Assembly: GCA_964355515.1 (NCBI GenBank)
Contig: CAYHDV010000003.1
Coordinates: forward strand, 7,914 to 71,913
Reading direction: 5' to 3'
Origin: an uncultured Candidatus Saccharibacteria bacterium
GTDB lineage: Bacteria; Patescibacteriota; Minisyncoccia; Phycocordibacterales; CSBR16-119
DNA: 64,000 nt
This document shows, piece after piece, positions 8,771-49,716 of this stretch. The stretch's first letter is position 1. Each line of letters begins with the position of its first letter. Position numbers and translations under genes: made by a program. Below the pieces are notes generated by a model. That model saw only the letters and a list, made by a program, of their open reading frames with translations. It searched no databases and was not told where the DNA came from.

Positions 8771-8774
8771 CAAA

Positions 8775-32894: not shown

Positions 32895-33674
32895 ATGAAG
32901 CCCAAAAAATCACTCGGACAAAATTTTCTTAAATCAAAACAAGCGTTGATGGCTATTTGCAATGCTGGAGAACTCAAAAAAGAAGATAGGGTGCTTGAGA
33001 TAGGTCCAGGGAAAGGCGCGCTGACAAAGTTTCTTCTAGAGCAATCAAACAATGTCTTTGCCTTGGAAAAAGACACTGAACTTATCCCTTTTCTTTCTGA
33101 AAAATTTGAAGAAGAAATCAAGAAAGGGTTTTTGAAAATACAAGAAGGTGATGTGCTAACTTTTGATGAGATAGAAGTCCAAGCTCCTTACAAGCTCATA
33201 GCAAATATCCCTTACTATATAACAGGAGAAATTATGGAAAAATTTCTTTCAAGCAAAAACCAACCCGAGAGAATCGTTTTCCTAATGCAAAAAGAAGTGG
33301 TGGATAGAATTATGGCAAGAGATGGCAAGGAATCCATCCTTTCTATGAGCGTCAAAGCCTATGGAACCCCCAAATATATCCAAAAAGTCCAAGCAAAAGC
33401 CTTTAATCCTGCACCAAAAGTTGACTCTGCTATACTAGCGATAGCTAATATATCCAAAAAAAGATTCACAAATGTAAGTGAAAAAGCCTTTTTTAACACC
33501 CTTAAAACAGGTTTCGCCCACAAAAGAAAGCAGCTAATCAACAATCTTGAAAAACTAACCTCTAAAGAGGTTCTTAATTCTCTGTTTAATGAGCTAAAGC
33601 TAGATCCAAAGGTCAGAGCAGAGTCACTCACACTAGACCAATGGCTCTTTCTAGCGAAAAACTTATCTCTTTAA
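32895..33674 (+). CDS. rsmA: 16S rRNA (adenine1518/1519-N6)-dimethyltransferase
   Basis: SLGQNFL start, EIGPGKGALT SAM motif, NIPY motif. Confidence 0.9.
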   Translation: MKPKKSLGQNFLKSKQALMAICNAGELKKEDRVLEIGPGKGALTKFLLEQSNNVFALEKDTELIPFLSEKFEEEIKKGFLKIQEGDVLTFDEIEVQAPYKLIANIPYYITGEIMEKFLSSKNQPERIVFLMQKEVVDRIMARDGKESILSMSVKAYGTPKYIQKVQAKAFNPAPKVDSAILAIANISKKRFTNVSEKAFFNTLKTGFAHKRKQLINNLEKLTSKEVLNSLFNELKLDPKVRAESLTLDQWLFLAKNLSL

Positions 33675-33760
33675 GGCTGGCCCAAGTCTCATTTCTCCTC
33701 ACTTTCTAGATGTTAATTTCTTTGCAAAGAAGAAATTTTTTAGTGTTATACTATTTTTAT

Positions 33761-34141
33761 ATGAAAACAACTGTAAAACATGGAATCTTTCTTGTCTCAC
33801 TTTTCGCATCTATTGGAATGATGCTTTTTAGCCATTATGCGTATGCCGCTTACGATAGACCTTTTGGATCAAGATTAAAATATGAATATCGTCCACCATT
33901 CTTCTGCCAGTCACAATATGGACCACTTTTACACACTCCAACTGGTAATAGTTTCGAGCCATCAGGCCTGGGGGAATATGGACCATCATCAGAACATGTA
34001 ACAGGATCAATCAAGCCAGATGTTCAAATCTTAGGGCTCTATAGCCCAACGCCATCACAAAACTGCTATATGCAAATCGGTCCATATCGATACACAGTTG
34101 AAACAACAATATTTACATACTTTGGAACAAGTCGTCTTTAA
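33761..34141 (+). CDS. Small secreted hypothetical protein (first gene of the T4SS-like cluster)
   Basis: Signal peptide ending AYA-AY. About 127 aa. Start chosen at MKTTVKH. Confidence 0.5.
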   Translation: MKTTVKHGIFLVSLFASIGMMLFSHYAYAAYDRPFGSRLKYEYRPPFFCQSQYGPLLHTPTGNSFEPSGLGEYGPSSEHVTGSIKPDVQILGLYSPTPSQNCYMQIGPYRYTVETTIFTYFGTSRL

Positions 34142-34156
34142 TAAGAAGATTATTTT

Positions 34157-35041
34157 ATGAATATAAGAGAAAGCCTTCCAAGTAAAAAGTTTCAAAAAAT
34201 AGCACTCGTTGTCATAATTCTTTCTGTTGTTTTCATTTTTATATCTATTAAAAAACCTTTTTCTGGCGGGGGATACGTCCAAAAAATATTTAAGGGAGAG
34301 GTAGAAACAGTAACTATCGGGTCTATTGTTTACAAAGATACAGATGGTGATGGGTTGTTTGACTGGGAGGAGTCTCTTTGGGGGACAGATCCTGAGAAAT
34401 CTGATACAGATGGTGACGGTATTAGTGATAAAGAAGAGGTAGACAAAAAACGACCAGAAACAAGTGAAGGGGGCGATGAATCTCTGACCGAAACATCCTT
34501 ACTCGCAAGAGATCTTTTTAGTACAATAGTTTCTCTAAAACAAAACAACAGCCTTACAGAAGAAAATCTAGAAAGCATAGCAAACCAACTCGCTGGTTCC
34601 ATAAATTCTGCAACATATGATACATACACGTTAGACTCTCTTATTGTTGTAGACTCAAACAACAATTCTTTTATCAAATATTTCAAAGAAACTGATAAAA
34701 TATTTCTAGCCTCGAAAAATAGTCATATTGGGGAAGAGCTTTCTGTCTTAACTGATTTCATTGAAGACCCTACCTCAAATCAATCAAAATTGGAGGTAAT
34801 CATATCTGAATACAAAAAAATTTCATCTGATCTAAGTAAGTTGGATATTCCTGAATCTATATCTAAGGATCATCTAGCTCTTATTAATACCTACGATAAG
34901 ATAGCTCAGTCAATCGAAGAATTCCTGTATATCAATGATGACCCTCTACGAACCTTATCTGGCCTATCAAACTATGAAAGATATTCAACTAATATACTAG
35001 ATATATTTAAGAGGATAGACAGCTATTATCTACCTCAATAA
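34157..35041 (+). CDS. Membrane-anchored protein with thrombospondin-type-3-like Ca-binding repeats
   Basis: N-terminal TM. DTDGDGLFDWEE and DTDGDGISDKEE repeats. Confidence 0.55.
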   Translation: MNIRESLPSKKFQKIALVVIILSVVFIFISIKKPFSGGGYVQKIFKGEVETVTIGSIVYKDTDGDGLFDWEESLWGTDPEKSDTDGDGISDKEEVDKKRPETSEGGDESLTETSLLARDLFSTIVSLKQNNSLTEENLESIANQLAGSINSATYDTYTLDSLIVVDSNNNSFIKYFKETDKIFLASKNSHIGEELSVLTDFIEDPTSNQSKLEVIISEYKKISSDLSKLDIPESISKDHLALINTYDKIAQSIEEFLYINDDPLRTLSGLSNYERYSTNILDIFKRIDSYYLPQ

Positions 35042-35058
35042 GTGTTATAATTATTTTT

Positions 35059-37422
35059 ATGGAAATATCTATCTACAAAACAAAAATTACACTACTACTT
35101 ATTATTCTAAGTATTCTTATTTTTCCAACAATAACCCGTGCTCAAATAAATGCACAAGGAATTGGTGCCCTAATCATCCAATGTGCCACAGCGACAGCTG
35201 CGAACCAAGAAGAGGGTGCATCTTCAATGTCTACAGTAGAACAAAGAAGGGTTGCAACCACTGAAAATAATGCAAAAAAACTAGCCAAGAAAGAGGCCTG
35301 TTCTGATGCGATAGCAAAATATACAATGGGGCAACTTCTCTCAAAGCTGACCCAAGAAACCCTAAACTGGATCAATGGTGGCTTCAAAGGGAATCCTTCA
35401 TACCTGCAAAATCCAGAGGCTTATCTGAAATCAATTGCTAACCAAGAAAGAACTCAGCTTCTGAGTCTCTTGGGAAATGACCCGGTGAACTTCCCTTATG
35501 GGCGAGCTGCTATGCAGGCGATGGTGAATAGAGAACTAAATAAAGGCTTTAGTGGTTTTGCACAAAGGGCTAAATATACTCTAAATAGCTATGTCCCAAC
35601 AGGAAATGCGGCAGACTTTCATAGAGATTTCCGAATCGGGGGGTGGGACGCATTTTTCGCTCAATCATTTCAACAACAAAACAATCCTGTAGGATTTGCA
35701 CTTCTTGCTTCAGAAGAGGAGGCTCGGAGAACAGCGGGGGATGATCTAAACAAATTACAACTAGCACAGAAAGAGCTCGACCAGAATAGTGGGTTCTTAA
35801 ATAACAAACTTTGCTCAGAGTCTTACCATCCATCAGGAGAATACGAACCACCAGAAACTACAAACGACGGTATATTTACAGAAGCAGATTGGATCGCTAT
35901 AGCAAATGATCCAAACAGAACAGAGGCAGAGAGAATTGACGCAAAAAGACATATTTGTAAAACATGGGTAACAAAAACCCCTGGAACGCTTATTGCTCAC
36001 GCCTTAAACAAAACAGTTATTGACGTTCCTTTGGATCAAACAATTTTTGCAGATGAAATAAACGAATCCCTAAATACGGTATTCGCAGCTCTTCTTACTC
36101 AGACATTCCAGAATGGGACAAAGACACTTCAGGGTGGAATAGCCTCACTACAGGAAGAGGCAAATAGTTTCAGTCTTGGGTCAATCGGGCTTGGGGATAT
36201 ACTCTTTGATCCTGGATCAGCAATAGGACAAGGATTAAGTGGTGCTTCAACATACTTTGGAGGAATAGGAGAGAACACTGAGAATATACAGACAACACAG
36301 GGGAGTCTTACTGGCTGGTTAAACCAAGGACAAGAATTCGATATCTACAACCAACTTCCTTACATTATATACTTACAGAAAAAATATATCGGTGACCCAT
36401 CTGCCGTACTACCTCAAGGTATCGATCAAGATACAGGACAGCCTTTTATTGATCCCACCCCAGGTTTCAATGGTGTTCTTTCTCAAAATCAAGCCCTTCG
36501 AAATAGCATCATACAAAGTGAATTACTTGATGTCTGCATACCTGGACCAAACCCAACATTTGAACAAAAGATATTCGAAAAAATACAATCCGGTGAAGAG
36601 GATATACGAGAAACCCTTGCGACATCAACTCAAGTTGCAAGCTTCCTATCTCCTTCGGGAAGTGTTGTTGGTAAGATGACAGAGGCCTCAGAGCAAGCAA
36701 TTCAACTTCTTTATAAGGTTGGAAAGGAGCTAACCCAAAAAATAAAAGATAAGTATAGGACAGATCAACTAGGAAATATGCCAACCGTTACCAATACAGC
36801 ATATAAAGAATTGGTAAAAATTGATAAATATCAAAATATTATCTTAGAGAACCAAGAAAAAGTAGAAGAGATTCAAACATTACTTAGAAATCTAGAGTAC
36901 CTACAAACACGAATAAATTCTCTTAGGGATCAGGTGGAAAGCGGAGTAGTGTCACCAGAGGTTGCAAGCACTGAGGCCTCCGTACTTGTAAATACATTTT
37001 ATGAAGTTGCCCCAGATGCAATAAAAGCTGAAGATCTTATCGAGCTTCGTTCTGTCGCTGAGGTTGCTCTGGGTAATATAGCCTACATCAATACCCTTAC
37101 AGATGCTTGCTGGGAAGAAAGAAATGATCCTGGTTATACTGGAGAAATTAATCAAGTTCCATATAGTTCAATATCAGGGAATACCTTGTACGGTATTGGC
37201 TCAGGAAATACCGCTCACTTCTTAAGCCCTGGGGTTACACTTGATTATGGTACTGATTTTGGTTCAATATTGAATCAAATAACCTTTATTTCAACAGGGG
37301 GTATCGCTGGATCACTAAGTACATTTACAATACTCCAGACTCTTGACTGGTTCGGCTCTGGAGACTTCGATGGATTTAATGTAAATAGCAACTGGTTTGA
37401 AGATTGGACAAATATTCAGTAA
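35059..37422 (+). CDS. Large secreted hypothetical protein (787 aa)
   Basis: N-terminal signal/TM segment. No recognised domain. Co-directional in the cluster. Confidence 0.6.
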   Translation: MEISIYKTKITLLLIILSILIFPTITRAQINAQGIGALIIQCATATAANQEEGASSMSTVEQRRVATTENNAKKLAKKEACSDAIAKYTMGQLLSKLTQETLNWINGGFKGNPSYLQNPEAYLKSIANQERTQLLSLLGNDPVNFPYGRAAMQAMVNRELNKGFSGFAQRAKYTLNSYVPTGNAADFHRDFRIGGWDAFFAQSFQQQNNPVGFALLASEEEARRTAGDDLNKLQLAQKELDQNSGFLNNKLCSESYHPSGEYEPPETTNDGIFTEADWIAIANDPNRTEAERIDAKRHICKTWVTKTPGTLIAHALNKTVIDVPLDQTIFADEINESLNTVFAALLTQTFQNGTKTLQGGIASLQEEANSFSLGSIGLGDILFDPGSAIGQGLSGASTYFGGIGENTENIQTTQGSLTGWLNQGQEFDIYNQLPYIIYLQKKYIGDPSAVLPQGIDQDTGQPFIDPTPGFNGVLSQNQALRNSIIQSELLDVCIPGPNPTFEQKIFEKIQSGEEDIRETLATSTQVASFLSPSGSVVGKMTEASEQAIQLLYKVGKELTQKIKDKYRTDQLGNMPTVTNTAYKELVKIDKYQNIILENQEKVEEIQTLLRNLEYLQTRINSLRDQVESGVVSPEVASTEASVLVNTFYEVAPDAIKAEDLIELRSVAEVALGNIAYINTLTDACWEERNDPGYTGEINQVPYSSISGNTLYGIGSGNTAHFLSPGVTLDYGTDFGSILNQITFISTGGIAGSLSTFTILQTLDWFGSGDFDGFNVNSNWFEDWTNIQ

Positions 37423-37531
37423 ACCTGAAAACAAAAATACCCTAACTGGGTATTTTTGTTTTAGCTGGCTTGCAGTTTTGCACAAAAACAAATAGGGAAG
37501 GGCACGAAAGCTGATATACTTTAGACATAAC

Positions 37532-40516
37532 GTGATACAGCTTTTACAAAACAAATTAGTAAAAGGTGCTGTGCTTACACTTGTTTCTTGTGTGATGCTT
37601 TTTGGTAGTTTCACTTTTGGGGTTAAGGATACCAAAGCTCAAGCCTCAATACTCACTCCTTCAGAGGTAGAAGATGTTATAAGAATTGATTGGTTCCCAG
37701 CCACAGATATAACCTCTGGGTCTTTCAAAAAATTTGGGACTATCACTATTACCGATATTGGATCAAGTATAGACGGTCTTCAGTCAAATAGATTTGAGAA
37801 TGATTATCTTATTATAAATAAAGAGGGAACAGATTTTTGGGTTTTCTTTGGTGAACAAGTTAATTATTCAAATGGTGGTTCCATGGTAATCCAAGAATCT
37901 GAACTTGGTTTAACTAACCCTTCAGGATATAACGAAAATACAATGAGATTCGGGGTTTCCTTTGGCGGATTAAACCCTGAGACTGAATATGATGTTTCTC
38001 TATACTATATCCCTAAAAAATTCGTTACCCAACCAGGGCCTGGTGGGGGCACAAGCCAAACACTAATAGATTTAGACGGATCACCGTGGCCTGGACCTGA
38101 TTCTGGAGAAACAATAAAAACTCTACCCCAAGGCCAGGGAAGCACGCCCGAGACGGAGACTTCAGACCTAGAAGGTCTTACCGGTTTCGACCAGGCAATT
38201 AGTACACACATTAAATGTGGGGCTATTGGTGACTCTTCTTTAAGCGACTGTTTTATTGAGGGTCTTTATTGGATTGTTTATCCGGTTTCTGTTTCAATTC
38301 TTGGAATAGCCGGTAAGTTATTTGACCTACTTACAAGTCTTGCAATCTCAAGCAAGGTATACCGAGATTCAACATTTGTTATTAGTGGATGGTCAATTGT
38401 AAGAGACATTTCAAATATTTTCTTTATTTTCATACTTCTTATAGCCGCTTTCAAAACAATGTTTGGGTCTGGAGATGTCCAAAAAACCATCAAAAATGTA
38501 ATAGTCATAGCCCTACTTATAAACTTTAGTCTCTTTATGGTTAGAGTGGTGATTGATGGATCAAATATTCTTGCCCACCTGTTTTACAATAGAATTAGTG
38601 TTACGGGTGCTTCAAATCAAGAATTACCTCCAAGTCTAGAGTTATCAAATGTGGGGGAGCAAAGAAATCTTTTTGAGGGGATCACTGCTGGACTTAATGT
38701 CCAAAATTTCATGGCTGGGCCTGGGGTAGATCAATTCTTAAAGGAATTGGGTTCTAACAAAATGCCCTTAGTGACAATTATCGTATTTTCTTTGATTGTA
38801 AACTTCGTAGCTGCTTGGATTTTCTTTAAAGTTGGATTTATGATGCTTGGAAGAATTATCGGCCTATGGCTCGCCATGATCCTGGCCCCCCTTGCTTTTA
38901 TTATGCAACTAGTTCCTGGGGCCTCACTGTATCTCAAAGATTTTAGTTTTAATAAATGGATGTCCGACATGGTTCAATATGCACTTCTCGCTCCTGTTTT
39001 TCTATTCTTTGTCTATCTAATTATAATTTTCATAAATAGTCATTTCCTGGATGGATTTTTACAGTCAGCAAATTATGATGGTTATGAAAAACTTGTTGTG
39101 TTATCCCTTTCATTTATGATAATTGTTGGAATTCTAAAAATGGCAGAGAAGACAGCTACTGGTATGGCAGGAGAAGCTGGAAACATGATAGCTGGAGCAG
39201 CGACAAAAGCCTTTGGGGCTGTGGCGGGAGTAGCTGGAGGAGTGGCTCTTGGAGGGGCTGCTGTTGCAGGAAGAACAGTTATTGGAGGAGCTGCAACAGC
39301 GGCAATGGAATCAGGCAAGCTTCAAGAATGGTCAAAGAAGGGAGGTATCAGTGGCTGGATGGCAAAACAAGGACTCAAGGGTGCTGATGGAGCTACAAAA
39401 TCAAGCTTTGATGTACGTTCAAGTGGTATTGGAAAAGGTATTCAGAGCAGCTTGAACTCTGCCCTTGGGACAAATATCAACATGAACAATGCTGTTGTGG
39501 GGGGTATTGGCTATGGAACAGACAAGGGCGCTGGAGGACTGCAAGGAATTCAGAAGAGAAAAGAAGAGGAGCAAAAAGCATACGCAAAACTATTGGAACT
39601 CAAAGGAGAGGGTGCTGTTCAGCAGGATGAGAAGAACAAAGCGTGGCAAGATAAATATCAAGCATCTCTTGCAGAGGCACAAAAGAAGGCTAAAAAAGCG
39701 AAAGTTAATCTAAACGAAGAGGACTTCAGAAAGCAATACGAAAAAGGAGAAGACTTTGCTCTACGAGACAATCTTGGAAGGACGTTTAAAGGTGGTTCAT
39801 CATTCAAGGGTGGTGAAGCTTATGTTAAAAATGCAAAAGAAGTGAGTGCTGAAAATAAAAAAGCTTTTGCAGAAAAACTTAATAGAGGAGGTGATTCATT
39901 CTTGGGTGCAGCCATGGAGTCAGGTGCTGTAGCCAAAAGTGCTATGGGGATAGGCGGATTAGTAGGAGGTGGGTCAGCTGTTTCAAATATCTCTGCAATC
40001 GCAGGTACAGCAGGAGTCTCTGGAGCTGCCGCTGTAACAGGGGTGGCTGCGTTGGCTGGTATTCCAAAGTTTGATGAAGTCTTCACCCAAGGCAGGGCAG
40101 ATAGAGCTGTGGCCAGAGAAATACTTGGCGCAGAAAAGAAGAAAGAAAAAGCCGGTGTAAATCTGGCCGATCTCAAGAAACTTCTGACTGACGCTAAAGC
40201 ACGAACAGGAGCAACATCGGGGGAATCAGATAGTGATGCACTCAAGGGTATGGCAGCAACTCTAAAAGCTCAGCAAGAAATCCAGAAAGCCCAGCTAGAC
40301 CTTGCAAAGAAAGAGTACCTTCTAGCTTTCAAGGCTCATCAGGCAAGCCCTACAGATCCTGCGCTTAAAGCAGAAGTTGATAGACATGAAAAGACATTTA
40401 TGGATATTAGCTTGAAACACACAGAGCTTGGAGATAAGATAGGTGAGTACAAGAACTTCTCAAACAATGAAGAAAGATTCACAAAGCTATTAAAAGGAGA
40501 AGACCCTGAAAAATAA
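37532..40516 (+). CDS. VirB6/TrbL-like polytopic membrane protein with N-terminal extracellular domain and long Gly/Ala-rich, K/E-rich C-terminal tail
   Basis: Signal peptide. Six or more TM helices with the TrbL-like pattern (ISNIFFIFILLIAAFKTMFGSGD). G/A-rich low-complexity region and coiled-coil tail. Confidence 0.6.
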   Translation: MIQLLQNKLVKGAVLTLVSCVMLFGSFTFGVKDTKAQASILTPSEVEDVIRIDWFPATDITSGSFKKFGTITITDIGSSIDGLQSNRFENDYLIINKEGTDFWVFFGEQVNYSNGGSMVIQESELGLTNPSGYNENTMRFGVSFGGLNPETEYDVSLYYIPKKFVTQPGPGGGTSQTLIDLDGSPWPGPDSGETIKTLPQGQGSTPETETSDLEGLTGFDQAISTHIKCGAIGDSSLSDCFIEGLYWIVYPVSVSILGIAGKLFDLLTSLAISSKVYRDSTFVISGWSIVRDISNIFFIFILLIAAFKTMFGSGDVQKTIKNVIVIALLINFSLFMVRVVIDGSNILAHLFYNRISVTGASNQELPPSLELSNVGEQRNLFEGITAGLNVQNFMAGPGVDQFLKELGSNKMPLVTIIVFSLIVNFVAAWIFFKVGFMMLGRIIGLWLAMILAPLAFIMQLVPGASLYLKDFSFNKWMSDMVQYALLAPVFLFFVYLIIIFINSHFLDGFLQSANYDGYEKLVVLSLSFMIIVGILKMAEKTATGMAGEAGNMIAGAATKAFGAVAGVAGGVALGGAAVAGRTVIGGAATAAMESGKLQEWSKKGGISGWMAKQGLKGADGATKSSFDVRSSGIGKGIQSSLNSALGTNINMNNAVVGGIGYGTDKGAGGLQGIQKRKEEEQKAYAKLLELKGEGAVQQDEKNKAWQDKYQASLAEAQKKAKKAKVNLNEEDFRKQYEKGEDFALRDNLGRTFKGGSSFKGGEAYVKNAKEVSAENKKAFAEKLNRGGDSFLGAAMESGAVAKSAMGIGGLVGGGSAVSNISAIAGTAGVSGAAAVTGVAALAGIPKFDEVFTQGRADRAVAREILGAEKKKEKAGVNLADLKKLLTDAKARTGATSGESDSDALKGMAATLKAQQEIQKAQLDLAKKEYLLAFKAHQASPTDPALKAEVDRHEKTFMDISLKHTELGDKIGEYKNFSNNEERFTKLLKGEDPEK

Positions 40517-40530
40517 ATAATTCAACAAAT

Positions 40531-41001
40531 ATGGAACTAACACCAGAATTAATTGAAGAAAAGTACAAAGAGCTACCAAAGGACCTCCGGGAGGCTCTTT
40601 CGGGGAAGCATGTGGAAGAATCTGTTTTTACTATTGGAAAAAGAAAAGGTCTCCACATAGACAAGATAACCACTCTTCTAAATCAAGTGAGATATTTTAT
40701 CCTCGGGTTTACTTCACCTCAAGATTTCAAGGCAAACATCGTAAAAGAACTTGATATACCCGGAGATCAAGCAGGGGAGATTGTGGAGGATCTAAACCAA
40801 GAGATCTTTATGCCAGTGCGTGAGTCACTCCAGGCCATCCACCTCCGAGATAATCCAACTGCTCAAGATTCAACACCAAACCAAGCCAAGAACTTCATAA
40901 ATCAAAGACTAAACCAAACAAGCGGAACCGAACAAAAAACTACAGACTATTCTATCAGGAGGGAGGAGAGGCACGATCCTTATCGGGAACCTATAGAGTA
41001 A
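40531..41001 (+). CDS. Hypothetical protein (156 aa)
   Basis: ORF in the cluster. Terminator-like hairpin at 41057-41087. Confidence 0.45.
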   Translation: MELTPELIEEKYKELPKDLREALSGKHVEESVFTIGKRKGLHIDKITTLLNQVRYFILGFTSPQDFKANIVKELDIPGDQAGEIVEDLNQEIFMPVRESLQAIHLRDNPTAQDSTPNQAKNFINQRLNQTSGTEQKTTDYSIRREERHDPYREPIE

Positions 41002-41141
41002 GTTATCTTGAGATCTTGTATTATCTCTTCATAAAGAATGTGAAATTTTAAGCACAAAAATCAGCCAGAACACTCGGCTGATTTTTGCGCTTATCCCAGA
41101 AGAAAGCTTTGTATAAAACTTTTTCGCGTTATAATAAACCC

Positions 41142-41543
41142 ATGAGATTTAAAGTTCCGCAATTTATAGATATTGAAGACAAAATCTTTGGTCCGCTTAC
41201 ATTTAAGCAGTTCATGTATATGGGAGGAGGGCTGGGTCTCACTTATGTTACATACAGATTTCTTCCACTCTATGGAGCGCTCCCTATCATGGCAGCCATC
41301 CTTGCTCTTTCTTTTTCTCTGACATTTGTCGAGATAAACAAAAAGCCATTCATCTATATTCTAGAGGCCTACATCAGATATATCATTGGCTCAAAAATGT
41401 ATCTTTGGAAAAAGGTTTCCAAGAGAGAGGCGACAGGAGCAGTAAGTAAAAGTGTTCAAAAAGAAAAAGTGGAAACACCAAAACTGACAGAGGGTAGGCT
41501 GAAGTCTCTTTCTCTGGGGCTTAATATTATTGAAGAAAACTAA
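41142..41543 (+). CDS. PrgI/VirB3-like small membrane protein
   Basis: MRFKVPQFIDIEDKIFGPLTFKQFMYMGGG, then two TM helices. Immediately upstream of VirB4, as in Gram-positive T4SS. Start set at the ATG at 41142; the tracked ORF starts at an upstream TTG. Confidence 0.55.
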   Translation: MRFKVPQFIDIEDKIFGPLTFKQFMYMGGGLGLTYVTYRFLPLYGALPIMAAILALSFSLTFVEINKKPFIYILEAYIRYIIGSKMYLWKKVSKREATGAVSKSVQKEKVETPKLTEGRLKSLSLGLNIIEEN

Positions 41544-41545
41544 TC

Positions 41546-42172
41546 ATGGCGACAAAACCTACACAAGAATTTATACCGATCCAAGAAATCCGAAATGGAA
41601 TTCTTGTCTTGCGCGATGGTTCACTCCGAGCAATCCTTATGACCTCTGCAGTAAACTTGGCTCTAAAGTCTTCTGACGAACAACAGGGGACAGTGTATCT
41701 TTTCCAAAGTTTTCTAAACTCTCTTGATTTCCCAATTGAAATTGTGGCTCAATCAAGAAAGCTTGATATCAAGCCCTATCTAGAAGCGCTCAATGTGCGA
41801 GAAACTGTAATAGAAGAGCCTCTTTTGAAACTCCAAATCAGAGAGTATGTAAGCTTCGTCAAAAACTTCACCGATCAGATAAACGTTATGAAGAAGCATT
41901 TTTTTGTTGTTATTCCATTTACACCAAATACTGTTTCATCAAATTCAAGTCTTATTTCTGGGTTATTTGGTGGAAAGAAAGCTAAAACAATTTCAGCAGA
42001 AGACTTCGGTGAATACATGTCTCAACTGGAACAAAGAATTTCTCTTGTTCAGTCTGGACTTTCTCGTGTGGGAGTGAAGAGTTCTCTTTTAAACAACGAG
42101 GAGTCTATCGAGCTTTTTTATACAATATTTAATATGGGAGATGGAAGTAGTTCTCTATCAATGGATAATTAA
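41546..42172 (+). CDS. VirB4/TrbE-family N-terminal domain (split gene, part 1)
   Basis: EFIPIQEIRNGILVLRDGSLRAILMTSAVNLALKSSDEQQ...FLNSLDFPIEIVAQSRKLDIKPYLE matches the conserved VirB4 N-terminus. Confidence 0.6.
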   Translation: MATKPTQEFIPIQEIRNGILVLRDGSLRAILMTSAVNLALKSSDEQQGTVYLFQSFLNSLDFPIEIVAQSRKLDIKPYLEALNVRETVIEEPLLKLQIREYVSFVKNFTDQINVMKKHFFVVIPFTPNTVSSNSSLISGLFGGKKAKTISAEDFGEYMSQLEQRISLVQSGLSRVGVKSSLLNNEESIELFYTIFNMGDGSSSLSMDN

Positions 42173-42177
42173 TACCT

Positions 42178-44238
42178 ATGAGCCTTTTCGACAAACTAAC
42201 AAAAAAAGATATCAAACCAACAGGTCCACAAGCGCTCCCTGTTCTTCCTGAGGAAATATACAAGACTGCAAACCTAGAGTTGCAAGATATCCTAGCTCCC
42301 GGAGCTTTGAAAATCCAACCCAAGACCCTCAACCTCGGAGAGGAGCTTGCTCGAACATATTTTGTGGTTTCCTATCCAAGATACCTGACAGACAATTGGT
42401 TTACACCTATCATCAACCTAGACAAGATTTTCGATGTTTCTATTCATATTCATCCAGTAGATACATCCACAATCCTTAAAAAGTTTGAAAAAAAGGTAGC
42501 CGAAGTACAAAGTCAAATCGAGGCTCGTTCAGAAAAAGGTGTCGTGCGAGACCCAATTCTCGACACCGCATATCATGACTTGGAAGACCTGCGGGACAAT
42601 CTCCAGCAGGCACAGGAGAAAATATTTGAAGTAGGGCTATACATCACAATATACGCAAAGACAGAAAAAGAGCTTTCTGAAATAGAAACAAAGATTAAGT
42701 CTATATTGGAATCAAAGTTGGTTTACCTCAAGCCAGCACTCTTCCAACAAAAAGAAGGTTTCTTGAGTACCATGCCAATTGGCGATGACCAGCTAGCTGT
42801 CCACCAAAAGATGAATTCTGCACCACTGTCCTCTCTATTTCCTTTTGTTTCTTTTGACCTTACAGATGAGAAGGGGATCCTCTATGGGATAAACAGACAA
42901 AACTCAAGTTTGGTTATTTTTGATAGATTCTCTATGCCAAACTACAACTCAATCACCTTTGCCACCTCAGGAGCCGGGAAATCTTTTGCAACAAAACTTG
43001 AGGTATTGCGTTCCATGATGTTTGATACAAACGTAATTGTTATCGACCCAGAGCGAGAGTATGAGTCTCTTGCAGAAGCAGTTGGTGGACGATTCTTCAA
43101 CATCTCTCTTTCTTCAGAGCACCATATCAATCCATTTGATCTACCAAAACCAAGTGAAGATGAAACACCAGCGGATGTTCTTCGGGGGACAACCATTAGT
43201 CTCGTGGGACTATTTCGAATCATGCTTCAGGGTCTAACTCCAGAAGAAGATGCTATCGTGGACCAGGCTATCACCCAAACATACGCCCTAAAGGATATCA
43301 CCGCCGAGGGAAGCTTTGAGGGGAAAGAACCTCCACTTCTTTCTGATTTTGAAATGGTCTTGCAAGGGATGGATGGTACAGATTCTGTTCTACAAAAACT
43401 TTCCAAATTTACAAGTGGGTCTTGGTCTACATTTATGAATAAGCCCACAAACGTGGATATTGATAAGAAATTCATTGTATTTTCTGTACGAGACATGGAA
43501 GACGACCTCAAGCCTGTTGCCATGTATCTTGTAACCCAATTCATCTGGACAGCTATTCGAAAAAATATCCAAAAAAGAATTCTAGTGGTGGATGAGGCTT
43601 GGTGGATGATGAAATCAGAAGATACCGCAAGCTTCCTATATAGCATGGCAAAGCGAGGAAGAAAGTATTACCTAGGGCTTGCCACAATCACCCAAGACGT
43701 GGGGGACTTCATGCGGTCAAAATATGGAGTGCCTATTGTTACAAACTCTTCTATTCAGCTTCTTTTGAAGCAATCACCAAGCACTATTGATGTTCTCCAA
43801 AAAACATTCAACCTGACCGATGAAGAAAAATACCTTCTTCTTGAGGCAAACGTGGGTGAAGGGATATTCTTTGCCGGCCTAAAACACGTTGCAATTAAAA
43901 TCATTGCTTCATATACCGAAGAGCAGATTATCACCTCAGATCCTGCCCAGATTCTGGCAATCCAAAGAGCAAAAATAGAAAAGAGAGAAGTTGCTGCTGT
44001 GGTAGAAGAACAAAACAAAGAAAAAATACAAACTGTCATGAAAGAACAAGCTCAAATCCAAAAAGATAAAGAGCTTGAAGAAAATTTGCGTATCAAAGAA
44101 GAAGTAACTGAGGCCAAAAAAGAAGAGGTTTCTCTCCCCGATAGCACAGCTCCAAAAGAAACTAATTCTCTCCAAAGTTTCTCTGACAATCTAGATAGTG
44201 AAATATCAACACTTGAGAACGAACTTGGGGGATTCTAG
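42178..44238 (+). CDS. VirB4/TrbE/CagE-family T4SS ATPase (part 2, ATPase domain)
   Basis: YPRYL motif, Walker A SGAGKSF, DPEREY, Walker B ILVVDEAWWM. 686 aa. Different frame from part 1, with a 5-bp gap. Confidence 0.85.
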   Translation: MSLFDKLTKKDIKPTGPQALPVLPEEIYKTANLELQDILAPGALKIQPKTLNLGEELARTYFVVSYPRYLTDNWFTPIINLDKIFDVSIHIHPVDTSTILKKFEKKVAEVQSQIEARSEKGVVRDPILDTAYHDLEDLRDNLQQAQEKIFEVGLYITIYAKTEKELSEIETKIKSILESKLVYLKPALFQQKEGFLSTMPIGDDQLAVHQKMNSAPLSSLFPFVSFDLTDEKGILYGINRQNSSLVIFDRFSMPNYNSITFATSGAGKSFATKLEVLRSMMFDTNVIVIDPEREYESLAEAVGGRFFNISLSSEHHINPFDLPKPSEDETPADVLRGTTISLVGLFRIMLQGLTPEEDAIVDQAITQTYALKDITAEGSFEGKEPPLLSDFEMVLQGMDGTDSVLQKLSKFTSGSWSTFMNKPTNVDIDKKFIVFSVRDMEDDLKPVAMYLVTQFIWTAIRKNIQKRILVVDEAWWMMKSEDTASFLYSMAKRGRKYYLGLATITQDVGDFMRSKYGVPIVTNSSIQLLLKQSPSTIDVLQKTFNLTDEEKYLLLEANVGEGIFFAGLKHVAIKIIASYTEEQIITSDPAQILAIQRAKIEKREVAAVVEEQNKEKIQTVMKEQAQIQKDKELEENLRIKEEVTEAKKEEVSLPDSTAPKETNSLQSFSDNLDSEISTLENELGGF

Positions 44239-44275
44239 TGTTTTGTCTCTTGTGAATCCATAGTATGATATACAC

Positions 44276-44662
44276 ATGGATACAGATGATCAAAAAATAT
44301 CTGAAGAATTAGAAAGCTTGGAAAAGGCATTCGAGGAAGAGACTGCTTCCTCTCCCATTGCTGAAATAAAAGTGAATACACCCCAAGCTCAAACAGTTGG
44401 AGGTTTTTCACACACAATAACCTCCCTAAAAGAAACCGATTCCAAAATAGCTGGGAAAATAGAAACCTTAAAGAATCTAGCAAAAAGTGAGTTGGATAAA
44501 CTAAAAGAATTAAAAAATAGTATCGCAAAAAAAATAGCAGATATAAAAGAGCTTGCTGAAACAAGAGAAAAAATCAAAAAAGAGATCGAGAAAATATCGG
44601 GATTAGAATCTGAAGTAAATTCAATAACAGAAGAAGCAACTCATGAACTTGGCAATCTATAA
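44276..44662 (+). CDS. Coiled-coil hypothetical protein (128 aa)
   Basis: E/K-rich heptad-like sequence. Confidence 0.45.
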   Translation: MDTDDQKISEELESLEKAFEEETASSPIAEIKVNTPQAQTVGGFSHTITSLKETDSKIAGKIETLKNLAKSELDKLKELKNSIAKKIADIKELAETREKIKKEIEKISGLESEVNSITEEATHELGNL

Positions 44663-45650
44663 AAAAATATACATTGTTTTTTCTTTCATCTTTGTTTTTG
44701 GTGTGGCTTGTTTTCTTTTCATCTCTACCGCCATGGCTCAGACAGAAAGCTTTTCTTTTGAGGTCTACCCCAAGAATCCAGCACCTCAGGAAGTGGTAAA
44801 AGCTTCTTTGTCGAGTTTTTCTGTTGACTTAGACAAAGCTCACATCACATGGACAGTGGATGGTAATACTATTCTATCCGGAATGGGTGAGAAATCGGCT
44901 AGCATAAAAACCAAAAACCTGGGCGAGGTAACTGTTGTAAAGGCTGTTGCGGTGTTCGCTCAAGGCCAGAGAATAGAACAAACCTTAATCATCCAACCTG
45001 CGTATCTGGATATTCTCTGGGAATCAACAGACTCTTATACTCCTCCTTTTTACAAAGGAAAAGCTCTTCCTTCGCAGGAGAGCACCCTTAAGGTTGTCGC
45101 TATTCCAGAAATCAAAAACTACGCAGGTCAAAAATACAAGCCAGAACACCTCATCTACACATGGAAAAAGGGTATAGAAACTCAAACAAATAACTCCGGC
45201 TTTAATAAGCAATATTTCTCTTTTAAACATAGCGTCTTTGACAAAGAGCAAAGAGTCAACATAGAAGTGGCAAGCCAAGATGGGTATAGTGGTGGAGAGG
45301 GATCAGCATTGATTACTTTTTCTAATCCTCGTGTGGCTGTATATCAAGAAACCTCTCAAAAAGGTATAAACTTTGCCAGCGAGCTTTCTCAAAATTCATT
45401 ATCAAGCAGGGGTAAGACAAGTCTTGTAGCTATCCCATACTTTTTTTCAACAAACTCTCATGGGGAGAGCGGTCTTTCCTATCAGTGGACAGTAAATGGA
45501 AATACAGCCACCCCACAAAATACAAAGAATAAAATTACCTTAGAGAAAACGGGGGAGGATGCTGGTCTTGCAGAAGTAGAGGTATCCATTAAAAGTGTTT
45601 CTAAACTTTTTCAAGATGGGCTTAAAAAATTTAATATAGAATTGCAATAA
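44643..45650 (+). CDS. Secreted/membrane-anchored hypothetical protein (335 aa)
   Basis: N-terminal TM or signal segment. Confidence 0.5.
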   Translation: MNLAIYKKIYIVFSFIFVFGVACFLFISTAMAQTESFSFEVYPKNPAPQEVVKASLSSFSVDLDKAHITWTVDGNTILSGMGEKSASIKTKNLGEVTVVKAVAVFAQGQRIEQTLIIQPAYLDILWESTDSYTPPFYKGKALPSQESTLKVVAIPEIKNYAGQKYKPEHLIYTWKKGIETQTNNSGFNKQYFSFKHSVFDKEQRVNIEVASQDGYSGGEGSALITFSNPRVAVYQETSQKGINFASELSQNSLSSRGKTSLVAIPYFFSTNSHGESGLSYQWTVNGNTATPQNTKNKITLEKTGEDAGLAEVEVSIKSVSKLFQDGLKKFNIELQ

Positions 45651-45651
45651 T

Positions 45652-47370
45652 ATGAAAAAGATTTTCTCATACCTAATAATAACCCTGGTGATGTTTTTCC
45701 AAGTTTCTATTGCTGTCTTCGCCCAGCCTGTACCTACCAGCTCTGAACCTTCTCTTACTATCGAGGCTGGATTATCTTTTGAGCAAACATCTGTTGGACC
45801 ATCAGCAAATCCAACTTTAAATATCCAAGTTTTTGGAGATAACATGGAGCAGGTTTATCAATCTTATGTTTTAGAAGTTTTTAAAAACAATGAAACTGAG
45901 CCACATGCCACAGGAATAAATCTATATACAATAGTTGATGGATCTTTTGAGGGGGAGGTAATACCTTTGGCGACGCAAGCAGATGCAGCTCAATATACTA
46001 TTACGGCAAAAACAGGAACAACTGGCGAGGATCTGCTAATAGAAACTATAATCTTTCAAATGGTTAGAGAGTCGTCTCCAGCACTCTCTATCCCTTCAGT
46101 CACCATCACCCCAGAAACAGGATTAACTACCGGGGTGTCTTACACAGTGAAGGGCTCTGGCCTATTTGGAAATGCCACCTACACCATCCCCGTACAAATA
46201 CGAGCAGGAAGTGAACTTGGAGAGGTTGTCTATTCCGATACATATGAGGTGACCACTGGTTCTGGGGGAGCGTTCAATCTCACACCCAGCTCTTGGAACC
46301 CAGCAACTTTTAATGCTAACCAGGGGGCTGAGGGAGGATCGCTTGAAGGAATACAAGGTGCGGGAACAAACGAGGTGGCGACAGATACTTTTGTGGTACA
46401 AGCATTTCTCCACACAACAGCAAATGCTGTAAAAACAAGTAAGTCTTTTCAAACAAATGGTGTTACAAACGCTATCAATGTTGAAAATGGCGTGGTGACA
46501 AATACAGATGACTGTATCGATGGGCAGGGGACATACTGTCTTCTAGAGCCTATTGGAACGGGGAACAATCTATTAGACCGAGTAAATATCAATACGTCTT
46601 TTGGAAGCTATTTAAATGGACTTTTCCAAATCGGGCTTGCTCTTATTGGGATTCTGGGAGTTCTCCTTATTGTTGTAGGAGGTATAACCTACATGACAAC
46701 AGATGCTATTGGTAAAATGACAGAGGGAAAAGCTCAAATTAAAAAAGCCCTTCTGGGTATTTTCCTTGCTCTTATTTCATGGCTACTTTTGCAAACCATA
46801 GACCCAGGGTTGTTGAAATTTGAAATTGGAGTATATGATGCGCCAACACCTGGGTACCTGGGGGAGGCGACACCAACCGGAACAAATGTTTGCGGGTCAA
46901 GAACACTAAACGGGCAAACAGTCACACAAGGAATGCCTTGGCCTAGTGATCAAACACAGCGGAGCTTACTTGGGAATGCAAATATAAGTATTGCTTCAAC
47001 AGGTGGAAACAATGCTTGCACAACAGCTGGTCAGACAAGTTGCACATCAGTCTATTTCTCAGGGGCAGCATCAAACGTACCCCAAAAAGTGATAGAAATT
47101 AAAACTCAGTGCGAAGAAGAAACTGGAAAAACCTGCCCAGTTGTAATAACAGGGGGAAGCGAATGTTGGGCACACCAAAGCCATGGGCCATCTCTAAAAA
47201 GAGTAGATCTCCGCAATAATACAACTACCGCTGATTTCAATGCTTGGGTGTATAGCAAATTAAATGGAGCAAGCTCGGGCATCATCCCAGGTCTAGGTAA
47301 ATTTACAAACGAAGCCGATGGGGCAACATCAAATACAACCGCCTCTCACTGGCATGTTGAGTTAGATTAG
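45652..47370 (+). CDS. Secreted protein (572 aa) with an internal pilin-like (VirB2/TrbC-like) double-TM hairpin
   Basis: Signal peptide. The segment GLALIGILGVLLIVVGGITYMTTDAIGKMTEGKAQIKKALLGIFLALISWLLLQTI reads as TM, short charged loop, TM. Confidence 0.5.
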   Translation: MKKIFSYLIITLVMFFQVSIAVFAQPVPTSSEPSLTIEAGLSFEQTSVGPSANPTLNIQVFGDNMEQVYQSYVLEVFKNNETEPHATGINLYTIVDGSFEGEVIPLATQADAAQYTITAKTGTTGEDLLIETIIFQMVRESSPALSIPSVTITPETGLTTGVSYTVKGSGLFGNATYTIPVQIRAGSELGEVVYSDTYEVTTGSGGAFNLTPSSWNPATFNANQGAEGGSLEGIQGAGTNEVATDTFVVQAFLHTTANAVKTSKSFQTNGVTNAINVENGVVTNTDDCIDGQGTYCLLEPIGTGNNLLDRVNINTSFGSYLNGLFQIGLALIGILGVLLIVVGGITYMTTDAIGKMTEGKAQIKKALLGIFLALISWLLLQTIDPGLLKFEIGVYDAPTPGYLGEATPTGTNVCGSRTLNGQTVTQGMPWPSDQTQRSLLGNANISIASTGGNNACTTAGQTSCTSVYFSGAASNVPQKVIEIKTQCEEETGKTCPVVITGGSECWAHQSHGPSLKRVDLRNNTTTADFNAWVYSKLNGASSGIIPGLGKFTNEADGATSNTTASHWHVELD

Positions 47371-47386
47371 ATGATATAATATTGTC

Positions 47387-48634
47387 ATGATTAAAAAAGT
47401 ACTAAAAATTCTTCTTATATTTCTTCTGATTATTGCAGTGGTTGGCCTCTACCTTTTCTTCACACAGAAAAGGGTGCCAGGAGACGCACCGGAGAAAAAT
47501 ATATTTTCATTTTTTCCTTTTGGAAACAACTCTCAAACAACCACACAAACAGGTCTACCAAATGAAGGAGGTGAGAATCCCGATGTAGGTCAAAGCCCAG
47601 ATAATCTAAACCAAAGAATAAAACGGCTTTCAAATACAGATATAGCAGGGGCGACACTTTTTGAAAAAGAAAGAATTGTCCCGGCTGTAGATGATCAGTC
47701 AGAAGATACAGTAGAGATGGCGCTTGTGGCAAGGTACATCCAAAAGGAAGATGGACATGTATACGATATCTTTGTTGATACCCTAAAGACAGAGCTTCTC
47801 TCAAGCACTATTATCCCTCGTATTCATGAAGCTTTCTTTGGAGATAATCCAAATGAGCTTATTCTGCGATATCTAAAGAGTGACAACGAAACAATAGAAA
47901 CCTTTGGTGGAACAATAGAGAATGGATCAATCAAAGGTTCGTTTTTCCCAAAGAACATACCTATCCTAGCTATTTCCCCAGACAAAACAAAAGTTTTTTA
48001 TCTCACAGAAGAAGGTGAATACACAAAAGGTACAATAAGTTCTTTCGCAAATAAAAACAAAAAGCCTATATTTGAAAATGCTTTCTCTGAGTGGGTTCCT
48101 TGGTGGGGGACTGATTCTATTATCACCATGACAACTAAGTCTTCTGCAAACATAGAGGGTTCTGTGTATGGTCTATCTGCGACCACAGGGGTCTTGTCTA
48201 AACAATTTGGAGAGAAGGACGGCCTCACAACTCTCGCTTCTCCAAACGGTCAGAAAATCCTGTACTCAGAAAAAATAGATGGTGGAATAAAGCTCTTTCT
48301 ATATAACAAACAAAAAAATACCCACATAAACCTCGGCATCAAAACTCTTCCAGAAAAGTGCATTTGGGATATAAACTCTGTTGAGGTGTATTGTGCGGTG
48401 CCAAAAGACACTCTAAGTTCAAACCTTCCAGATGATTGGTACCAGGGTCTTGTTTCTTTCCGAGATTCAATATGGCTACTAGATACAGACTCCATAGCTC
48501 ACCAAGAGATTTTGGACCCATTTGAGGAGCAGTTCCTATCTCTTGATATCATTAATATTATGGTCTCAGATAAAAAAGATTACATGATCTTTACCGACAA
48601 AAAAACAAGCATTCTATACGGAACAGAAATTTAG
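47387..48634 (+). CDS. Membrane-anchored hypothetical protein (415 aa), last gene of the cluster
   Basis: N-terminal TM. Followed by a strong bidirectional terminator. Confidence 0.5.
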   Translation: MIKKVLKILLIFLLIIAVVGLYLFFTQKRVPGDAPEKNIFSFFPFGNNSQTTTQTGLPNEGGENPDVGQSPDNLNQRIKRLSNTDIAGATLFEKERIVPAVDDQSEDTVEMALVARYIQKEDGHVYDIFVDTLKTELLSSTIIPRIHEAFFGDNPNELILRYLKSDNETIETFGGTIENGSIKGSFFPKNIPILAISPDKTKVFYLTEEGEYTKGTISSFANKNKKPIFENAFSEWVPWWGTDSIITMTTKSSANIEGSVYGLSATTGVLSKQFGEKDGLTTLASPNGQKILYSEKIDGGIKLFLYNKQKNTHINLGIKTLPEKCIWDINSVEVYCAVPKDTLSSNLPDDWYQGLVSFRDSIWLLDTDSIAHQEILDPFEEQFLSLDIINIMVSDKKDYMIFTDKKTSILYGTEI

Positions 48635-48643
48635 TATAAAAAA

Positions 48644-48668
48644 GACCCCTTCTTTAGAGAGGGGGTCT
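48644..48668. terminator. Bidirectional terminator
   Basis: gacccct-tctttagaga-ggggtc, flanked by A- and T-tracts. Confidence 0.75.
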
Positions 48669-48683
48669 TTTTATATATAGATA

Positions 48684-49454
48684 TTAAATCGCGTATTCTT
48701 TCAGGCGAAGGTCAATGTCTTCTTCTATGCTCTTTAGTCTACTCTTAATAACTATCTCCTGACCTATGGTAAATAGGGTGTTTGTGATCCAATACAAGAC
48801 AAGGGTTGAGGGAAACATGAGTCCAAAAATAATAACCATTCCCGGCATAACAAATTTTACAAAAATCCCCATTTGTTTTTGCATCATATCCATTGGGCCA
48901 AGGTTGCTCATGTCTTTTAGAGACATTTTGTCATCCTTTTTAAATACAGGTGAGAGCCAAACTTGAATATATTGGAAGACTCCAGCCAGTATTGCAAGAA
49001 CAATGTTTGAAGAGCTAATATCTCGAATTCCAAGAAATCCCATCTGAATAGTCTCTGGAAAATGTAAAAATGGATAAACTAGTCCTTCTTGGAAAGAGAA
49101 TCCATCTTTTAATAGTGCGTAGAGTGACAAAACAACCACTATTTGAATAACAGTTGGAAGACACCCAGAAAAAGGGTTTACTTTTAGTTTTTGATAAAGC
49201 TCAAGCTGTTTTTGGGATTGTAGCTGTTTATTGTCTGGGTGATCTTTTTTAATCTTTTCAACAAAGGGCTGAATTCTATTGTTTTTGATCTGAGAGACAA
49301 GAGCCTTGTAAGAGAATGGGGCCAGAAGAAACTTAACAATAAGAGTTAACAGCACAATCGCCAAACCAAGGTTGTTTCCTGGTATAAAAAGAATAAGAGC
49401 AATAAGTAGGTTAAAGAGTGGTTTGTGTAAAATTATATTAAAAATAGCTTTCAT
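48684..49454 (-). CDS. yidC: Membrane protein insertase YidC (short Gram-positive/Oxa1-like form)
   Basis: Five TM helices. Conserved LAPFSYKA and P..GCLP region. 256 aa. Confidence 0.85.
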   Translation of the reverse strand: MKAIFNIILHKPLFNLLIALILFIPGNNLGLAIVLLTLIVKFLLAPFSYKALVSQIKNNRIQPFVEKIKKDHPDNKQLQSQKQLELYQKLKVNPFSGCLPTVIQIVVVLSLYALLKDGFSFQEGLVYPFLHFPETIQMGFLGIRDISSSNIVLAILAGVFQYIQVWLSPVFKKDDKMSLKDMSNLGPMDMMQKQMGIFVKFVMPGMVIIFGLMFPSTLVLYWITNTLFTIGQEIVIKSRLKSIEEDIDLRLKEYAI

Positions 49455-49491: not shown

Positions 49492-49716
49492 TTAAGGGAC
49501 AGGGTCATATTTCTTGGTGGGGCACATCCCACAACGAGAGATTCTTTTTATACCCAAAAATGATCCTTTTATTGCCCCATATTTAATAATAGCCTCTTTT
49601 GTATATTCAGAGCAGGTTGGAAGGTAACAACAATCAGAGGCTATCCCCATAGAAACAAGCGTGTTTCTAATGAAAAGTTGATATATCTTTATTAAAAATA
49701 ATAGAGACTTCTTCAT
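49492..49716 (-). CDS. yidD: Membrane protein insertion efficiency factor YidD
   Basis: YQLFI...CCYLPTCSEYTKEAIIKYGAIKG...RISRCGMCP...YDPVP. Confidence 0.8.
   Translation of the reverse strand: MKKSLLFLIKIYQLFIRNTLVSMGIASDCCYLPTCSEYTKEAIIKYGAIKGSFLGIKRISRCGMCPTKKYDPVP

Follow-up and report, generated by a model that had tools for sequence, protein, structure and literature searches.

On a 64,000-nucleotide stretch of the contig CAYHDV010000003.1 (hereafter the window, meaning the whole of the DNA that was analysed), which comes from an uncultured bacterium labelled Candidatus Saccharibacteria, twelve consecutive open reading frames (ORFs) on the plus strand at 33710–48634 encode a Gram-positive-type (MPF_FATA-like) type IV secretion system (T4SS), in which a VirB4 ATPase, a PrgI/VirB3 protein and a VirB6-like protein stand among exported orphan proteins. 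We consider it probable that this cluster, whose genes we call g1–g12, is the chromosomal, vertically inherited T4SS of a Patescibacterium of the Paceibacteria/Ca. Nomurabacteria type, derived from the conjugation machinery of monoderm bacteria and no longer conjugative. An earlier note on this DNA, made from its letters, had described twelve co-directional genes that form a T4SS-like apparatus of Gram-positive type and had proposed them as a candidate novel variant. The ORF list bears out the twelve genes, and the core of the T4SS reading holds, with all three of the named components present. The proposed novelty does not hold, because chromosomal, relaxase-less T4SSs near dnaA, dnaN, ksgA and rnpA have already been described (PMC12102498, PMC10633639, PMC12857230); the cluster is of a known kind, a Patescibacterial chromosomal T4SS.

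The ATPase is encoded by g8 (42178..44238, 686 aa), a VirB4 of the MPF_FATA (CD1110) type. It matches the NCBIfam model NF045971 (conju_CD1110) at 1.7e-110 and 370.5 bits, above the cut-off of 325, over profile positions 182–732, as well as the Pfam family P-loop_TraG (PF19044, 1.8e-26), which bears out the VirB4 ATPase of the earlier note. Both Walker motifs are intact: the translation reads ATSGAGKS near aa 261–268 for Walker A, and Walker B is ILVVDE at 468. The preceding gene, g7 (41546..42172, 208 aa), was not named in that note and is TrsD-like. It matches NF045975 (VirB4_plasma) over profile positions 103–233 (NCBIfam, 2.7e-8) and NF041427 (TrsD, 1.9e-4), it aligns to positions 1–76 of the NF045971 profile, and it carries a precomputed match to the TraC-like PF26593. 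Because g7 matches models of the VirB4 N-terminal part and g8 aligns to NF045971 only from position 182, VirB4 is split here into a TrsD-like gene for the N-terminal domain and a separate gene for the ATPase. Upstream of both, g6 (41085..41543, an ORF of 152 aa) encodes a PrgI/VirB3-like membrane protein (PF12666, PrgI; 1.6e-8, 35.4 bits, gathering score 27). Translation of g6 probably begins at the ATG at 41142, which gives 133 aa, and the public annotation of the contig has a 133-aa PrgI gene in this place. The identity of this protein was thus correctly called, although it had been placed immediately before VirB4, and g7 lies between the two.

The VirB6-like protein is the 994-aa product of g4 (37532..40516). 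A hydrophobicity scan of this protein gives an N-terminal signal or transmembrane segment, an ectodomain of ~200 aa and ~7 hydrophobic segments at aa 254–580, followed by a tail of ~400 aa that is rich in G/A and K/E and that we infer to be cytoplasmic. No Pfam or NCBIfam match to TrbL, VirB6 or PrgH models was found for g4, or for 48 of its homologues at E ≤ 0.01. Three homologues carry no more than a precomputed PF19590 flag, and a g4 profile searched against PDB sequences returned only low-complexity noise (huntingtin polyQ and the like) from the K/E/Q-rich tail. At the level of structure, TrwI, the VirB6 protein of R388, was the best natural match and was outscored by a designed helical repeat protein; g4 is polytopic, with at least five transmembrane helices and, by prediction, a fold like that of VirB6. 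The polytopic helical membrane domain is common to g4, R388 TrwI/VirB6 and the extended VirB6 proteins, and large hydrophilic extensions occur in g4 as in the last of these (PMC12857230). Compared with TrwI, g4 has no detectable sequence similarity, an extra N-terminal ectodomain of ~200 aa and a G/A-rich, coiled-coil tail of 400 aa. The topology of ectodomain, helical membrane bundle and ~400-aa tail fits the extended VirB6 class (PMC12857230), and with moderate confidence, from the predicted fold, we regard g4 as an extended VirB6-like protein. The earlier description of a VirB6/TrbL-like protein of 994 aa has moderate support from the fold and none from the sequence models.

To place the cluster among its relatives, we scanned GTDB species representatives for VirB4, found at least 564 relatives and used the best 80, whose VirB4 proteins are 66–78% identical. 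These come mostly from Patescibacteria metagenome-assembled genomes (Paceibacteria, Ca. Nomurabacteria, Parcubacteria), and some are labelled Saccharibacteria or plain bacterium. The recurrent gene order is ksgA–g2–g3–g4–g5–PrgI–TrsD–VirB4–g10–g11–g12–yidC (minus strand)–dnaA–dnaN. The synteny comparison, which had been proposed in the earlier note, found the core genes collinear in all 53 scorable Patescibacterial loci, and the same gene order in dozens of genomes places the cluster beyond chance. Counting only loci whose fetched flank was long enough, g4 is present in 59/59, PrgI and TrsD in 51/51 each, g10 and g12 in 58/58 each, g11 in 56/58, yidC in 55/58 and dnaA in 49/53. TrsD was found in 80/80 when all related loci are counted (median identity 48%), and g1 and g9 are not conserved. 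The median identity across the 80 genomes is 73% for VirB4, 62% for DnaA, 50% for DnaN and 51% for KsgA, a comparison that slightly favours VirB4, since the loci were picked by VirB4 similarity, and to that extent counts against our reading. That VirB4 is more conserved than DnaA is unusual for a gene of a secretion system and fits an essential role; it argues for vertical inheritance under strong constraint. The cluster is chromosomal and lies beside replication-origin genes, and base composition is uniform across it, with no shift at its edges.

These features agree with what has been reported for the phylum. Patescibacterial VirB4 is found in 2,417 of 3,035 genomes and forms a clade nested in MPF_FATA, with TrsD, PrgI/VirB3, VirB6 and VirB2-like pilins encoded near virB4 and very few relaxases, and in Paceibacteria and Microgenomatia the T4SS lies near dnaA, dnaN, ksgA, rnpA and rpmH (PMC12102498, Quiñonero-Coronel et al. 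2025). A 2025 FEMS review treats these T4SSs as a recognised new branch (PMC12857230). The published clade and the locus described here have in common a VirB4 of MPF_FATA type with TrsD and PrgI/VirB3 next to it, a VirB6-like protein, a gene near virB4 for a VirB2-like pilin, the lack of a relaxase or type IV coupling protein (T4CP) nearby, and adjoining dnaA, dnaN, ksgA and rnpA. Nothing essential differs from that description; not found in it are a pilin hairpin inside a large protein fused to interchangeable wall-hydrolase domains (see below) and the occurrence of g10 and g12 in all related loci whose flank was long enough.

The T4SS cluster of Southlakia epibionticum ML1 (SEML1_0006–0019; Wang et al. 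2023, PMC10633639), which includes pilin genes and is without a coupling protein or relaxase, is essential for epibiotic growth by transposon sequencing. It shares with our cluster Gram-positive-like subunits, pilin-type genes within the cluster, the lack of a recognisable coupling protein or relaxase, and peptidase and lysozyme functions associated with virB4. In Southlakia, the VirB2-like pilins form an array of six small proteins that diverge in sequence, and the hydrolases have genes of their own downstream of virB4, whereas here there is one hairpin gene to which a hydrolase-like domain is fused. Among Firmicutes, the conjugative MPF_FATA systems (pCF10 prg/pcf, pGO1 trs, the CTn2 CD1110 family and ICEBs1) have homologous VirB4, PrgI and TrsD, a polytopic protein of the VirB6/PrgH type and a membrane-anchored wall hydrolase (PrgK, CwlT, CD419), which g11 may also be. 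They reside on mobile elements with a relaxase, T4CP and oriT and are without VirB2-like pilins; in contrast, DNA-processing parts are lacking at this locus, which keeps a fixed chromosomal place and encodes a pilin-type hairpin.

That hairpin is in g11 (45652..47370), whose 572-aa product consists of a signal peptide, a variable ectodomain, a VirB2-like hairpin at aa ~319–388 and a C-terminal Cys/His domain at aa ~395–572. An exported protein with an internal pilin-like hairpin had been recognised from the letters, and the family T4SS_pilin (PF18895) confirms it: aa 320–383 match at 26.0 bits in the full-length protein and at 28.2 bits when aa 290–572 are searched (gathering score 26.6). Across the g11 family, T4SS_pilin matches 68/71 members and TrbC/VirB2 matches 46/71. 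A model of aa 290–572 (predicted local distance difference test score, pLDDT, 83.6) has a long helical hairpin followed by a compact alpha/beta domain, and the hairpin can be superposed, at 2.2 Å, on a conjugative pilin of known structure. With ~290 aa before the hairpin and ~180 aa after it, g11 does not have the size of a small processed pilin subunit. The predicted topology runs from the signal peptide through the ectodomain to a helix that passes from outside to inside, a short loop, a helix that returns from inside to outside, and the C-terminal domain, so both large domains would lie outside the membrane, on the side that a wall enzyme has to occupy. The ectodomain is possibly a beta-sandwich, on weak evidence. 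The N-terminal ectodomains of some g4 homologues and of one g11 orthologue (L012:12870-14111) weakly match Pur_ac_phosph_N, PhoD_N or fn3, and the exposed parts of these proteins may be built of Ig/FN3-like modules.

No Pfam family covers the C-terminal domain of g11. A word-indexed search with full-length g11 returned only three proteins and was repeated with an alignment of this domain; most of the matches then obtained (typically ~300 aa) also have a precomputed PF18895 flag. In a library of 1.84 billion proteins, the domain family comprises 1,597 representatives at E ≤ 0.001, and among the matches listed the domain is mostly C-terminal in proteins of 200–700 aa. Numbered from aa 395, its invariant residues are E110, W112, H114, H117, D125, E160, H172, W173 and H174, together with three invariant cysteines and a fourth that is nearly so. 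Four of these residues form an H-x7-D...H-x-H motif (H117, D125, H172 and H174, invariant in alignments of 10 and of 21 sequences). In the model, D125 and H172/H174 are on strands and H117 is in the loop before them, all within blocks of pLDDT 94–98. Conserved zinc-binding H-x(n)-D and H-x-H motifs in a central beta-sheet characterise the LAS/M15 enzymes, and the domain agrees with them in this. Compared with the LAS-fold zinc peptidases (M15/VanY, lysostaphin-type and hedgehog N-domain), the g11 domain has a His–Asp spacing of seven residues, four conserved cysteines and no HMM (hidden Markov model) or profile–profile similarity to M15/VanY. Three further results weigh against an LAS assignment: a profile of the domain found nothing among PDB sequences, hhalign against VanY-type tails was negative, and Foldseek, run with the g11 model on PDB structures, yielded no match at E ≤ 0.001, its list being dominated by hairpin-driven matches to histidine kinases. 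We nevertheless propose an LAS-type zinc peptidoglycan peptidase, and consider the domain most likely to be zinc peptidase-like.

The strongest support for a wall-enzyme role of this domain comes from comparing sequences at the same position in related loci. When the C-terminal tails of 59 same-position pilin-hairpin ORFs and of the window's own were searched against Pfam, we found NLPC_P60 (13 tails), VanY (8), YkuD (5), Amidase_5 (5), Peptidase_M15_4 (3), SLT_2 (3), SLT (2) and, in one tail each, Amidase_2, SLT_3, SLT_4 and Extensin-like_C. The hairpin and the enzyme domain are in one polypeptide in 7/10 of the full-length orthologues scanned; six of these combine a T4SS_pilin match with an enzyme domain, and in the seventh (L012) the hairpin was recognised with a custom-built HMM. 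A database relative has SLT in place of the C-terminal domain. The recurrence of wall-enzyme tails at one locus position indicates that the position encodes a VirB2-like hairpin with an interchangeable peptidoglycan-active module, and the C-terminal domain of g11 looks like one such swappable VirB1-like module. The earlier note had seen no VirB1-type hydrolase in the window. The motif in g11 and the wall-enzyme modules of its orthologues make that statement doubtful, and a VirB1-type function is probably supplied by the predicted enzyme domain of g11. VirB1 homologues accompany virB4 mainly in Paceibacteria (PMC12102498). We found no mention of a hairpin–hydrolase fusion in that paper or in literature searches, and we regard the cassette as a modest lead, unreported as far as we found. 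Four related loci (L021, L043, L056 and L059) have two pilin-hairpin genes rather than one; in L059, one of the two has a confirmed Amidase_2 and the other appears SLT-like by eye, which is unconfirmed. This arrangement suggests duplication followed by module exchange.

Across the 64-kb window, the scanned ORFs of at least 110 aa gave no HMM match to a relaxase, a VirD4-type coupling protein or VirB11, in agreement with the earlier note, and none was found in a further 10 kb upstream on the public contig, where an adjacent relaxase and VirD4 would have pointed to an ordinary conjugative element. The model searches that had been proposed therefore detected VirB4 and PrgI/VirB3, gave no match to TrbL/VirB6, and found neither a relaxase nor a coupling protein. 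The lack of relaxase, VirD4 and VirB11 in the window supports the view that this is probably not a conjugative element. It could still be an integrative and conjugative element or the remnant of an integrated plasmid, with its relaxase and coupling protein outside the window: the family of g8 takes its name from conjugative transfer (NF045971), the conjugative plasmids of Gram-positive bacteria have TrsD and PrgI among their components, and our inspection covered ~84 kb of the genome. We judge this to be very improbable, given that the position between ksgA and yidC/dnaA and the gene order are constant in essentially every related species-level genome, that the edges are without an integrase, att-like boundary or shift in composition, that VirB4 is better conserved than DnaA, and that, of 3,035 Patescibacteria genomes, just 103 were found to have relaxases (PMC12102498). 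Synteny on its own largely refutes a mobile element. The sole tyrosine recombinase (Phage_integrase with a SAM-like N-domain; 20151–21083, minus strand) is 12.6 kb from the cluster and shows no sign of bounding an element; we take it to be probably a housekeeping protein of the XerC/D type.

T4SSs that have neither relaxase nor T4CP are able to import DNA, and the cluster might instead be a machine for DNA uptake or exchange, comparable to Helicobacter ComB or archaeal Ced, that brings in host DNA as a source of nucleotides. The proximity of uvrD could be taken in its favour, but uvrD is a conserved housekeeping gene, and HMM scans of the cluster detected neither ComEC nor DprA, nor any further DNA-binding component. 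Patescibacteria are also without de novo nucleotide synthesis (PMC10633639); however, competence in Saccharibacteria requires type IV pili together with ComEC, and deletion of comEC ends competence and leaves viability unaffected, yet the T4SS is essential (PMC10633639, PMC12857230). We therefore regard DNA uptake as unlikely, if less so than conjugation. Several points weigh against a T4SS that has lost conjugation and serves exchange with a host. A coupling protein could be encoded elsewhere in the genome, and most Patescibacterial T4CP homologues are indeed far from virB4 (PMC12102498). No protein of the cluster has an HMM match to a VirB8-like (PrgL/TraM) component; g10 and g12, which are both anchored at the N terminus, have no detectable similarity in PDB sequences. 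Moreover, the host-exchange function is carried over by analogy from Saccharibacteria.

A closer contest concerns the hairpin of g11, which may be a mere two-helix anchor for a VirB1-like wall hydrolase, as in PrgK or CwlT, with no polymerising pilin and no pilus. We give this alternative serious weight, somewhat short of an even chance. At 572 aa, and with a large domain before as well as after the hairpin, g11 is far from the 70–120 aa of pilins, and its orthologues have classical wall enzymes after the hairpin. The window has one hairpin gene, as do 64/68 related loci, and Gram-positive T4SSs are normally without pili (PMC12102498). Against an anchor stand the matches to T4SS_pilin and TrbC/VirB2 across the family and the structural superposition on a conjugative pilin. 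The subunits of known T4SS pili have both termini on the outside, and they may thus carry decoration. Furthermore, the pilin arrays of Saccharibacteria are essential (PMC10633639). Large-scale counts of VirB2-like pilins may accordingly include anchored hydrolases.

The other proteins of the cluster are largely orphans, and the earlier view that exported or membrane orphans surround the T4SS core is borne out by N-terminal hydrophobic (signal or anchor) segments in seven proteins (g1, g2, g3, g4, g10, g11 and g12; hydrophobicity scan). The small g1 protein (33710..34141, 143 aa; segment at aa 22–44) is lineage-specific, with no Pfam or NCBIfam match and no homologue in the 80 related loci, and its membership of the machine is doubtful. 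The 294-aa product of g2 (34157..35041) has an N-terminal anchor (aa 9–38), the thrombospondin-like calcium-binding repeats that had been noticed from the letters (PF18884, TSP3_bac; 8.7e-9, 35.5 bits, gathering score 25) and a helical C-terminal region; it is present, always in the same position, in 35/51 loci with at least 9 kb of upstream flank. The exported protein g3 (35059..37422, 787 aa; segment at aa 3–31) has a conserved N-terminal half and a coiled-coil-like C-terminal part, with homologues in 41/51 loci with enough flank; it has no Pfam match, and a profile of 32 homologues found nothing significant among PDB sequences. The soluble g5 protein (40531..41001, 156 aa) has no hydrophobic segment and no significant Pfam or NCBIfam family; its homologues (105–438 aa) occupy the same position in 39/51 loci.

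Downstream of VirB4, g9 (44276..44662, 128 aa) is an E/K-rich coiled-coil ORF that overlaps the start of g10 by 20 nt. It has only weak matches of coiled-coil type and a homologue in 1/80 loci, and the public annotation of the contig lists it as a gene; its composition resembles that of the non-conserved C-terminal tail of VirB4 (aa ~600–686). The g10 protein (44643..45650, 335 aa) has an N-terminal anchor (segment at aa 3–34) and three tandem homologous repeats of ~100 aa, with hhalign probabilities among its thirds of 94, 81 and 72%, and no Pfam or PDB-sequence match by profile. The g12 protein (47387..48634, 415 aa) combines an N-terminal anchor (segment at aa 1–30) with a conserved exported domain of ~380 aa and has no match in Pfam, NCBIfam or PDB sequences.

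Upstream of the cluster, on the plus strand, lie uvrD/pcrA (30897–32873) and, directly before g1, ksgA/rsmA (32895–33674). Downstream are yidC (48684–49454), yidD (49492–49716) and rnpA (49720–50034) on the minus strand, dnaA (50106–51758) on the plus strand and dnaN (52017–53120). The cluster had been described as bounded by terminators. This is correct for the downstream end, where a terminator-like hairpin at 48646..48664 between g12 and the convergent yidC reads CCCCTTCTTTAGAGAGGGG followed by a T-run on the plus strand, with a complementary site on the minus strand; it is not correct for the upstream end, where the 35-base gap between ksgA (ending at 33674) and g1 (starting at 33710) is without a terminator-like site and the nearest sites are within ksgA. 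The DnaA protein is 550 aa long, with DnaA_N beginning at aa 108 after an N-terminal extension of ~100 aa, and in many related loci the tblastn match spans only ~81% of it. Just upstream of uvrD, ~3 kb from the cluster, a divergent gene (29439–30743, minus strand) encodes an M23 peptidase with two LysM domains; for most related loci the retrieved flank does not reach it, and M23/LysM domains occur in some Patescibacterial VirB1-like proteins (PMC12102498).

Farther away, 60260–61972 (minus strand) encodes a PilB-type T2SSE ATPase with MshEN, of the type IV pilus; we considered it as a VirB11 and rejected it on its MshEN N-domain and length of 570 aa, which indicate a PilB-type pilus ATPase. 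The adjoining plus-strand gene from 62130 runs off the window; it encodes 674 aa on the public contig and has no Pfam match. The highest G+C fraction of the window (0.475) is at 62–64 kb. A 212-aa protein with an IS200-like Y1 transposase domain (10959–11597, minus strand) lies amid tRNA genes (8698–8771, 10098–10172 and 11898–11970), near a UPF0102/NERD nuclease-like gene at 10547–10927. Two further ORFs, at 4285–5979 (minus strand, 564 aa) and 17687–19402 (plus strand, 571 aa), have no Pfam or NCBIfam family and are without the P-loop signatures of coupling proteins.

For the chromosomal T4SS that we favour, we propose that VirB4/TrsD, tethered at the membrane by PrgI, would power assembly on the VirB6 platform. 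The hairpins of g11 would perhaps be drawn out of the membrane and built into a short stalk or pilus, with the wall-cutting domain on display, a step modelled on the solved R388 system, in which VirB6 is the base for pilin assembly; alternatively, g11 would remain in the membrane as an anchored analogue of VirB1. In either case its predicted zinc peptidase-like domain would open the wall locally, which is the job of VirB1, and g2, g3, g10 and g12 may form the part that spans the wall or makes contact. By analogy with Saccharibacteria, and given that DNA-processing parts are lacking, the machine would most likely move proteins or other material, rather than plasmid DNA, between the epibiont and its host cell.

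A bolder and tentative idea is that the 'pilin' of Paceibacteria T4SSs is a three-part protein (variable ectodomain, VirB2-like hairpin and swappable wall module) whose module is directed at the wall of the host, such that the T4SS carries or displays a host-matched wall cutter and the enzyme type marks the host range. Rapid swapping of the cassette at a fixed position, among loci whose VirB4 proteins are 66–78% identical, would make most sense if the enzyme targeted the wall of the host and not that of the epibiont itself. We think this doubtful enough to be offered as a conjecture.

As a T4SS locus, the cluster is nothing new in kind and is typical of a widespread, relaxase-less, origin-near system that is essential in Saccharibacteria. 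Its value is as a clean, complete and well-conserved reference locus for Paceibacteria with sharpened annotations: an extended VirB6 recognised at fold level, a VirB4 split into a TrsD-like N-domain and an ATPase, and a predicted hairpin–hydrolase fusion whose module is swapped between species. This fusion offers a testable handle on how wall-bearing epibionts breach walls and, possibly, on their host specificity.

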